From a virus (taxonomy: Duplodnaviria; Heunggongvirae; Uroviricota; Caudoviricetes): a stretch of DNA of 38,669 nt. A program made the translations under genes and the position numbers. Below, in pieces: positions 4,849 to 6,450 of this stretch (the first letter of the stretch is position 1; each line of letters begins with the position of its first letter). The notes beneath the pieces are model-generated. The model was given only the letters and a program-made list of their open reading frames with translations, was not told the DNA's origin and ran no database searches. The stretch is from IMG/VR virus record IMGVR_UViG_2541047843_000002; one strand, given 5' to 3'.

Positions 4849-4992
4849 TTAGTGAATGCTTTTGCTTGATCTCAGTTTCAGTATTAATATCCATTTTTTA
4901 TAAGCGTCGACGGCCTCACGAAACATCTTTTCATCGCCAATAAAAGTGGCGATAGTGAATTTAGTCTGGATAGCCATAATTGTTTGATCCAT
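4849..4992 (-). CDS. kil: Kil, FtsZ-targeting host-killing peptide
   Basis: Internal ATG of the track ORF 4849..5037 gives [47 protein letters not shown] (47 aa), the lambda Kil sequence as recalled; start lies inside the cIII 3' end as in lambda. Confidence 0.85.
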
Positions 4993-5083
4993 TTTTTGGG
5001 ACTCCTGGCTGTGAAGTGGTTTACTGAATTTGGCCACCTGAACAGAGGTGATATGCTCACCTCAGAACAACACAGGTGCCATA

Positions 5084-5386
5084 ATGAAAAAAAGAAATTT
5101 CAGCGCAGAGTTTAAACGCGAATCCGCTCAACTGGTCGTTGACCAGAATTACACCGTGGCAGATGCAGCCAGCGCTATGGATGTCGGCCTTTCCACAATG
5201 ACGCGATGGGTGAAACAATTACGTGATGAGCGGCAGGGAAAAACACCAAAAGCCTCCCCTATTACCCCGGAACAAATTGAAATCCGTGAGCTCAGGAAAA
5301 AGCTACAACGTATTGAAATGGAAAATGAAATATTAAAAAAGGCTACCGCGCTCTTGATGTCAGACTCCCTGAACAGTTCTCGATAA
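5084..5386 (+). CDS. IS911 OrfA (HTH transposase N-terminal protein)
   Basis: [21 protein letters not shown]... matches IS911 OrfA as recalled; leucine-zipper-like C-terminus. Confidence 0.85.
5335..5341 (+). other. IS911 programmed -1 frameshift heptamer AAAAAAG
   Basis: A-AAA-AAG motif near the end of orfA where the orfB frame opens; known OrfAB fusion mechanism of IS911/IS3 family. Confidence 0.7.
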
Positions 5387-5412
5387 TCGGGAAACTCAGG
5401 GCGCGTTATCCT

Positions 5413-6231
5413 GTGGCCACTCTCTGCCATGTGTTCGGGGTCCATCGCAGCAGCTACAAATACTGGAAAAACCGTCCTGAAAAGCCAGACGGCAGACGGG
5501 CTGTATTACGCAGCCAGGTACTTGAACTGCATGGCATCAGCCACGGCTCTGCCGGAGCAAGAAGCATCGCCACAATGGCAACCCAGAGAGGCTACCAGAT
5601 GGGGCGCTGGCTTGCTGGCAGACTCATGAAAGAGCTGGGGCTGGTCAGCTGTCAGCAGCCGACTTACCGGTATAAACGTGGTGGTCATGAACATGTTGCT
5701 ATCCCTAACTACCTTGAACGGCAGTTCGCCGTGACCGAGCCAAATCAGGTGTGGTGCGGTGATGTGACCTATATCTGGACGGGTAAGCGCTGGGCGTACC
5801 TCGCCGTTGTTCTCGACCTGTTCGCAAGAAAACCAGTGGGCTGGGCCATGTCGTTCTCGCCGGACAGCAGGCTTACCATGAAAGCACTGGAAATGGCATG
5901 GGAAACCCGTGGTAAGCCCGTCGGGGTGATGTTCCACAGCGATCAAGGCAGTCATTATACGAGCAGGCAGTTCCGGCAGTTACTGTGGAGATACCGGATC
6001 AGGCAGAGTATGAGTCGGCGTGGAAACTGCTGGGATAACAGCCCAATGGAGCGCTTCTTCAGGAGTCTGAAGAACGAATGGGTGCCGGCGACGGGCTATG
6101 TAAGCTTCAGCGATGCAGCTCACGCAATAACGGACTATATCGTTGGATATTACAGCGCACTAAGACCGCACGAATATAATGGTGGGTTACCACCAAACGA
6201 ATCGGAAAATCGATACTGGAAAAAACTCTAA
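5413..6231 (+). CDS. IS911 OrfB (DDE transposase catalytic domain; expressed as OrfAB fusion)
   Basis: 272-aa ORF in -1 frame relative to orfA with IS3-family integrase-core features (…WCGDVTYIW…, …[10 protein letters not shown]…, …[12 protein letters not shown]…). Confidence 0.85.
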
Positions 6232-6450
6232 CTCGGTGGCCAGTTTTTGTTGACCACTTCACTGATTAAGTATGTCGATAAGGCGTTTCCATCCGTCACG
6301 TAATTTACGGGTGATTCGTTCAAGTAAAGATTCGGAAGGGCAGCCAGCAACAGGCCACCCTGCAATGGCATATTGCATGGTGTGCTCCTTATTTATACAT
6401 AACGAAAAACGCCTCGAGTGAAGCGTAATTGGTATGCGGTAACGCCGCGC

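Follow-up and report, generated by a model that had tools for sequence, protein, structure and literature searches.

An ISEc52 element within cIII of a lambda-like Escherichia coli prophage: a shortened CIII and a pL operon that may still be read through

The insertion, the element and the prophage

The window, by which we mean the whole 38,669-nucleotide stretch analysed here (IMG/VR record IMGVR_UViG_2541047843_000002), holds a lambda-like prophage whose cIII gene contains a 1250-bp element of the IS3 family at 5012..6261, as read from the sequence and checked by script. On the minus strand the order runs cI (LexA-like), two accessory genes, pL/nutL, N, ral, ea10, the interrupted cIII, kil, gam, bet, exo and, farther on, xis and int, with sieB on the opposite strand between N and ral. 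The other side carries cro, cII, O, P, ren, the nin region, Q, an OmpC-like porin and the lysis genes, beyond which lie an iss/bor homologue, the terminase, and the head and tail genes. The prophage has one further insertion sequence, an IS2 upstream of iss. Pfam was used for CIII, Kil, Ea10, Ral, N and SieB, none of which has a model in NCBIfam. The parts of the insertion are as follows.

4961..5011, minus strand: orphaned 3' part of cIII, from the second copy of the Q39 codon through residues 40-54 to the stop
5009..5011: left copy of the target-site duplication CTG, read from the sequence
5012..6261, transposase genes on the plus strand: complete ISEc52 (IS3 family, IS911 group), 1250 bp, antisense to pL transcription
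5012..5047, plus strand: left inverted repeat (IRL), with TTT at positions 9-11 where the IRL of IS911 has CAC
5084..5386, plus strand: orfA, 100 aa, HTH_Tnp_1 domain
5335..5341, plus strand: A AAA AAG, predicted motif for a programmed -1 frameshift joining orfA to orfB
5341..6231, plus strand: orfB frame, rve/DDE catalytic domain (PF00665)
5084..6231, plus strand: predicted OrfAB fusion, 382 aa, HTH and rve domains
6226..6261, minus strand: right inverted repeat (IRR), matching the IRR oligonucleotide published for IS911 (PMC2909936) at every one of its 36 positions
6259..6378, minus strand: truncated cIII reading frame, residues 1-39, with a TGA stop contributed by the outermost three bases of the element
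6262..6264: right copy of CTG, which is cIII codon 39 (CAG, Gln)

The element starts with TGAAGTGG and finishes with CCACTTCA; its ends are imperfect 36-bp inverted repeats with 25 positions in common, each reading TGAAGTGG from the outside in. On the coding strand of cIII, which runs on the minus strand from 6378 to 4961, the duplicated CTG reads as CAG, and the gene is split directly after this codon 39. Because both ends of the element begin with TGA, an insertion between codons stops the host frame at once and leaves a clean CIII(1-39); the frame that opens at 6378 accordingly encodes MQYAIAGWPVAGCPSESLLERITRKLRDGWKRLIDILNQ (39 codons). The 3' remnant resumes at 5011 and stops at 4961, overlapping the start of kil, and in lambda the 3' end of cIII and the start of kil overlap likewise. 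When the element and one copy of CTG were deleted in silico, a 54-aa CIII reading frame was restored. In its coordinates and anatomy the locus thus agrees exactly with the earlier note, which had described a complete element with a 3-bp duplication that splits cIII after codon 39, a cIII frame that resumes after the duplicated CAG, and a position between N/ral and kil-gam-bet-exo.

The size, the terminal repeats, the two-ORF layout, the HTH and rve domains and the 3-bp duplication place the element in the IS3 family and the IS911 group. Its transposase scores 302.8 bits with the model NF033516 (transpos_IS3), whose cut-off is 160, and also matches PF00665, PF13683 and PF01527. Over its full 1250 bp, the element is 99.92-100% identical to copies that RefSeq names "IS3-like element ISEc52 family transposase" (for example those of THO-006, strain 100181 and ATCC 25922 = JCM 5491), and it is 100% identical to the ISEc52 copies in two of the sequences compared, L001 and L004. 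The name IS911, under which the element had first been noted, does not fit as well. ISfinder convention asks for at least 95% nucleotide identity between isoforms of one element, and against the IS911 annotated in phage Sf6, which served for comparison in place of the reference IS911 record, identity is 94.88% for the DNA (63 mismatches, one gap) and 96.1% for OrfAB. RefSeq places the label "IS911 family" on a copy about 94% identical to the element. By RefSeq naming, then, the element is ISEc52, the closest named relative of IS911, and not IS911 proper. With IS911, which was first described in Shigella dysenteriae, it shares the length of 1250 bp, the 36-bp terminal repeats with a fully matching IRR, the A AAA AAG frameshift, the 3-bp target duplication and the published sizes of the proteins (OrfA of 100 aa and OrfAB of 382 aa; PMC2909936); it differs in its DNA and OrfAB sequences, in the three IRL bases and in the RefSeq name.

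The affinity to IS911, best known from Shigella and some E. coli, had also been taken as a hint of the host background; a Shigella background is not borne out. Of 5426 complete E. coli genomes, 1800 contain full-length relatives of the element, both chromosomal and plasmid-borne, and ISEc52 is multicopy, with a median of three places per genome; the literature also records it in other Enterobacteriaceae. Since the element is so widespread, it says little about the host. The prophage itself is more informative: its arms are 100% identical to those of the sitABCD-adjacent prophage found in many B2 ExPEC/APEC genomes, including those of S88, IHE3034, APEC O1, ATCC 11775, CFT073 and Nissle 1917. 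This identity marks the prophage of the window as the lambda-like one that is linked to sitABCD and iss in phylogroup-B2 ExPEC/APEC E. coli.

The shortened CIII and the operon behind it

In its strictest form, the effect of the insertion would be a null allele of cIII combined with a polar block of pL, with poor lysogenisation and with Kil, Gam, Red, Xis and Int substantially down. We consider this reading unlikely but serious enough to be weighed at each step below, first for the gene and then for the operon. The features that bear on it, besides those of the insertion, are these.

4849..4992, minus strand: kil, 47 aa, intact (PF06301)
6333..6391, minus strand: thermoregulator and translation-control element in the 5' part of the cIII mRNA (Rfam RF01804, Lambda_thermo, 88.5 bits, E = 1.8e-20, full length)
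8014..8286, minus strand: N antiterminator, 90 aa, intact (PF25694, 112.5 bits), upstream of the IS in the pL operon
8385..8429, minus strand: nutL-like site read from the sequence, with boxA GCTCTTTAA at 8429..8421 and a boxB-like hairpin TGGCTGAAAAGCCA at 8398..8385
11198..11494: cII, gene present

The restored 54-aa protein has exact matches on at least 1000 contigs under the name "protease FtsH-inhibitory lysogeny factor CIII", and 52 of its 54 residues are the same in lambda CIII. From this protein the insertion removes 15 residues (40-54), among them the PGVP motif at residues 40-43 that most full-length homologues keep, and with them the last four of the 42 positions of the Pfam model; the cut frame and the missing motif are what a null allele would rest on. 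The 39-aa product nevertheless matches PF02061 (Lambda_CIII) at 93.1 bits over model positions 1-38 of 42, lies between ea10 and kil where cIII is expected, and is preceded by the thermoregulator; it is shorter than the full-length product (39 aa instead of about 54). The RNA that controls its translation is intact, as is everything 5' of that element.

What the product retains is the part of CIII to which activity has been assigned. Kobiler et al. (PMC1838920), citing work by Kornitzer from 1991, call residues 14-37 "essential and sufficient" for activity, and in the same paper S17A, R24A, L26A, R27A and R32A are each given as causing a cIII-minus phenotype. The 39-aa product includes the whole of this region, and S17, R24, L26, R27 and R32, which make up all the known critical residues, are present in it. 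The 1991 result may have been obtained with fusion constructs, so that a free 39-mer might be unstable or might oligomerise poorly.

Natural short forms of CIII also speak against a null allele. Salmonella homologues are 46 aa long, and a 40-aa allele that arises by a change of GGA41 to TGA is found on 53 contigs, which represent at least three prophage backgrounds. This allele has the same first 120 nt as the window and encodes the window's product plus Pro40, but it is a point nonsense allele with no IS and a contiguous operon, spread over several prophage mosaics; the idea that it might be a second IS event 3 bp away was discarded for this reason. Both stops, that of the IS allele and that of the 40-aa allele, fall two or three residues past the published minimal FtsH-inhibitory domain. 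It may be that the 40-aa allele is in turn a pseudogene in decay.

Taken together, we think it most likely that CIII(1-39) has partial or near-normal activity, with a mild lysogenisation defect and not a null phenotype. The earlier proposal that CIII is lost and lysogenisation lowered therefore stands as far as the truncation to 39 aa and the loss of PGVP are concerned, but its assumption of a null allele is unsafe, given the retained 14-37 region with its five critical residues, the intact thermoregulator RNA and the occurrence of the 40-aa allele in several backgrounds. A "disrupted" cIII, in other words, need not be a null allele, and this one amounts to a natural experiment on whether lysogeny control and induction can do without CIII residues 40-54.

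For the operon, the question is whether transcripts from pL would cross the element. N suppresses the polarity of insertion sequences, and the polarity of IS elements in lambda early operons was reportedly found to be relieved by N by Adhya, Gottesman and de Crombrugghe in 1974. Here both antitermination parts, the N gene and the boxA and boxB of the nutL site, are present upstream of the insertion; we presume the latter to be nutL-like from its resemblance to the boxA and boxB of lambda and rrn. The pL strand has four terminator-like sites of its own in the interval from the promoter region to cIII. Because these sites precede cIII, polymerase that arrives at the element must already be N-modified and termination-resistant. 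The situation resembles the classical lambda cases in that an IS lies in an N-antiterminated operon, where distal expression is expected by N-modified read-through; the classical work was done with IS1 or IS2 in laboratory systems (lambda or gal), whereas the element here is ISEc52 in antisense orientation.

The case for a polar block draws on the element itself and on kil. The antisense strand of the IS has two terminator-like hairpins on the side transcribed from pL (6195..6180 and 5582..5566) and no translated reading frame over its 1.25 kb, and these hairpins and the untranslated RNA could lower distal expression if N modification is inefficient. In addition, cIII translation no longer crosses the start of kil but stops before it, so that any translational coupling between cIII and kil is lost. 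The kil start itself is intact: its Shine-Dalgarno sequence AGGAG (5002..5006) starts at a distance of 5 nt from the element, its ATG is at 4992, and in contexts of 100-300 nt the predicted unpaired probabilities of both are essentially the same with the IS in place. Occlusion of this start by the new upstream RNA was accordingly rejected. A promoter within the element was considered as another source of kil expression and likewise set aside: the TTGACC in the IRR points the other way and the flank has no usable -10, and no promoter-like site facing kil was found on the minus strand within 4400..9000.

On this evidence, expression of Kil, Gam, Red, Xis and Int is expected to be reduced modestly at most. 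The lower Red and Gam expression that had been anticipated for this prophage is possible, considering the antisense hairpins and the untranslated RNA, but the effect is expected to be minor, with N and the nutL-like site intact and terminator-like sites already present before the insertion. The allele is, in this respect too, a natural test: it would show how much a 1.25-kb antisense IS disturbs an operon under N antitermination.

The reading that we prefer, to which we give a probability of about 0.8, joins these points: one ISEc52 transposition into cIII, vertical inheritance, a CIII(1-39) that is partly or near-normally active, and an operon that is read through. ISEc52, an active IS3-family element of the copy-out/paste-in kind, would have transposed once between codons 39 and 40 of cIII, and a single E. 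coli lineage would since have passed the insertion on vertically. As long as the prophage is repressed, the pL operon is silent, which would make the insertion neutral for the host and allow it to persist at no cost. Upon induction or infection, the intact, thermoregulated start site would have cIII translated into a 39-residue peptide ending in Gln39, which would keep the whole amphipathic, FtsH-inhibiting 14-37 domain. Transcripts from pL, N-modified at nutL, would presumably cross the 1.25-kb antisense element, and kil, gam, bet, exo, xis and int would probably still be expressed, at most modestly below normal levels.

Other ISEc52 events in the pL arm

The cIII insertion is one of several ISEc52 events in this part of the prophage. 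Between window positions 5011 and 9866 we found at least nine ISEc52 junction types in the same or closely related prophages. Four of them are simple insertions with 3-bp or inferred repeats: the one in cIII, one at 6915 (direct repeat GAG), one at 6947 (direct repeat AAT) and one in sieB. The other five are junction pairs that lack repeats and border deletions, namely ral-sieB, within sieB, from sieB to the accessory genes, from ea10 to the nin region, and from ea10-ral to the tail genes. The insertion at 6915 is the second copy in L005, one of the assemblies that share the cIII junctions (see below); it is inverted relative to the cIII copy, so that two ISEc52 copies 650 bp apart flank ea10-cIII' as an inverted pair. 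Several of the RefSeq-named ISEc52 copies also lie in the pL arm of the same prophage family with cIII intact, and their sites are between ea10 and ral, in ral, in sieB, or beside adjacent deletions. A comparable case is the Shigella phage Sf6, a lambdoid or P22-like temperate phage whose copy of IS911 sits in the non-essential early gene ninG and which was isolated as a viable phage; it differs from the present case in the gene, in the operon (pR side) and in the element, which is IS911 proper.

One could suppose from such a tally that ISEc52 is favoured or kept in the stretch from N to kil, where it would blunt toxic pL genes (kil and cIII) as a step in domestication. We regard this as improbable. 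The nine or more junction types, four simple and five with deletions, and the two neighbouring copies in L005 are what would recommend it, but the tally comes mostly from an IS-centred search that joined only nearby pieces on the same strand, and it is biased for that reason. When queries of equal length were compared and rows of 100% identity considered, the pL arm had an IS100 and one ISEc52 event, the replication/nin arm had one IS3-family event and the head arm had none, which is a modest excess and does not establish a hot region. Moreover, most of the 201 genomes with the pL arm have it uninterrupted, no target consensus is visible among CTG, GAG and AAT, and the lack of a promoter-like site facing kil from the IS counts against the idea as well. 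The fuller claim, that N to kil is a true ISEc52 hot region retained by damping Kil and CIII in abortive or spontaneous induction and that the cIII insertion is a selected domestication step, strikes us as very doubtful. If it were true, CIII would have been cut back by that step to roughly its minimal active domain.

Occurrence of the junctions among E. coli genomes

We return to the preferred reading, a single transposition followed by vertical inheritance, on which the occurrence of the junctions bears. Both junctions are found base for base in two chromosome-size assemblies, L004 (OZ043813.1) and L005 (CP163971.1), and the cIII-proximal junction is also present in the drafts L006 and L007; over 6-12 kb, each of the four shares at least 99.98% identity with the window. 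The 39-aa product is present on 39 contigs, and an exact-sequence look-up returned it in 81 index blocks, six of which contain chromosome-size contigs. The cIII junction occurred in 0 of the 5426 RefSeq complete E. coli genomes, and an exact junction scan gave 0 matches in viral contigs and 0 in species-representative genomes. As the junction is present in near-identical assemblies but in none of these complete genomes, it is restricted to a lineage, and from this pattern we conclude that the insertion is one event, inherited vertically in one E. coli lineage.

Several candidates that might have complicated this picture were rejected. Seven matches among the RefSeq complete genomes that were reported as "100% covered" proved to be joins of three pieces, with cIII intact and the IS elsewhere. 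Two further drafts, L008 and L009, had looked like independent insertions at the same site, but their contigs end there and their immunity regions are different: L008 continues with C, the base of intact cIII, and L009 stops exactly at CAG, so that neither is evidence for an IS. A mosaic or recombination boundary at the element was also discarded, as every mismatch to THO-006 lies to the left of position 3986.

That an assembler misplaced a repeated IS into cIII, the possibility against which the earlier note had asked that the junctions be checked, has next to nothing to recommend it, for while ISEc52 is multicopy and short-read drafts do break at the junction (L006-L009) because of it, the 3-bp duplication is perfect, the reading frame is restored exactly, and the independent chromosome-scale assemblies L004 and L005 have the same two junctions. 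The insertion of an IS into a non-essential prophage gene is in itself a well-known and ordinary event, and public genomes already carry annotations of this allele. Strains that have the allele could be traced as a lineage by its junction.

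ISEc52 junctions in the pL arm

Insertions of ISEc52, the IS911-group element that interrupts cIII in the window, are found at other points of the pL arm in the same or closely related prophages. Tallying junctions over the equivalents of window 5011..9866 in eight database loci (L001, L002, L005, L010-L013 and L020), we recognize at least nine distinct types, several of which adjoin deletions and lack direct repeats. Because control searches with queries of equal length reveal only a modest excess of such events in the pL arm, its status as an ISEc52 hot region is not established. 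The chromosome-size assembly L005 (CP163971.1) carries the cIII insertion (window equivalent 5012..6261) together with a second, inverted ISEc52 at the equivalent of 6915, between ea10 and ral. The pair flanks a 650-bp segment from ea10 to the truncated cIII, a layout reminiscent of composite transposons or of invertible segments.

Shorter cIII alleles and contig ends

In loci L015-L019 (positions 3001..3123), a change of GGA to TGA at codon 41 leaves a natural 40-aa cIII allele and also converts the Shine-Dalgarno sequence of kil from AGGAG to ATGAG; this allele was counted in 53 contigs and 92 index blocks, representing at least three different prophage mosaics. A 41-aa CIII variant, listed under protein P0003 (cluster of the 39-aa product), departs after Arg32 (…GWKRVEVLLCAMK) and lacks residues 33-37 of the region cited as essential for activity; it is recorded in about 1000 contigs and may have arisen by deletion or rearrangement.

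Two draft contigs, L008 (position 6118) and L009 (position 6117), stop exactly at, or 1 nt beyond, cIII codon 39. Their prophages differ in immunity region, and the base past codon 39 in L008 is that of intact cIII.

Mosaic structure, a second insertion and accessory genes

Four further features of the window are:

977..3986, int-proximal pL arm, extending across exo into bet, diverged segment
8723..10029, minus strand, two genes in the place of rexAB, flanked by N and the repressor gene
16330..17472, minus strand, prophage-borne OmpC-family porin gene (NF007841, 521 bits)
about 19203..19496, minus strand, iss/bor homologue

The diverged segment differs by 2-3% from the related, cIII-intact prophage of E. 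coli THO-006, whereas 3987..19667 is essentially identical; the step at 3986/3987 marks a mosaic boundary that has no connection with the ISEc52 insertion. Another IS, 1331 bp long and with IS2-type ends (TGGATTTGCCCC... / TAGACTGGCCCC...), occupies 19668..20998 and shows a duplication of 5 bp (ATTAC). The THO-006 prophage lacks this element and is elsewhere 99.6-99.97% identical to the window. Relative to the iss/bor homologue the element is upstream, at a distance of about 170 bp, and its ORFs are oriented towards that gene; iss expression might therefore be altered.

The porin gene, annotated as ompC in THO-006 by RefSeq, has the Q-like antiterminator region on one side and the lysis genes on the other. 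The pair in the rexAB position encodes a 250-aa DUF1828 protein and a second product of 185 aa that weakly matches DUF6978, and may constitute exclusion or defence cargo; in FDAARGOS_1255, part of this block is missing through a deletion bordered by ISEc52. An extra 156-aa gene lies between ea10 and ral in L021 (K56-43-un) as a 504-bp insert; it is present in some otherwise identical prophages and is also found in L015, L016 and L018.
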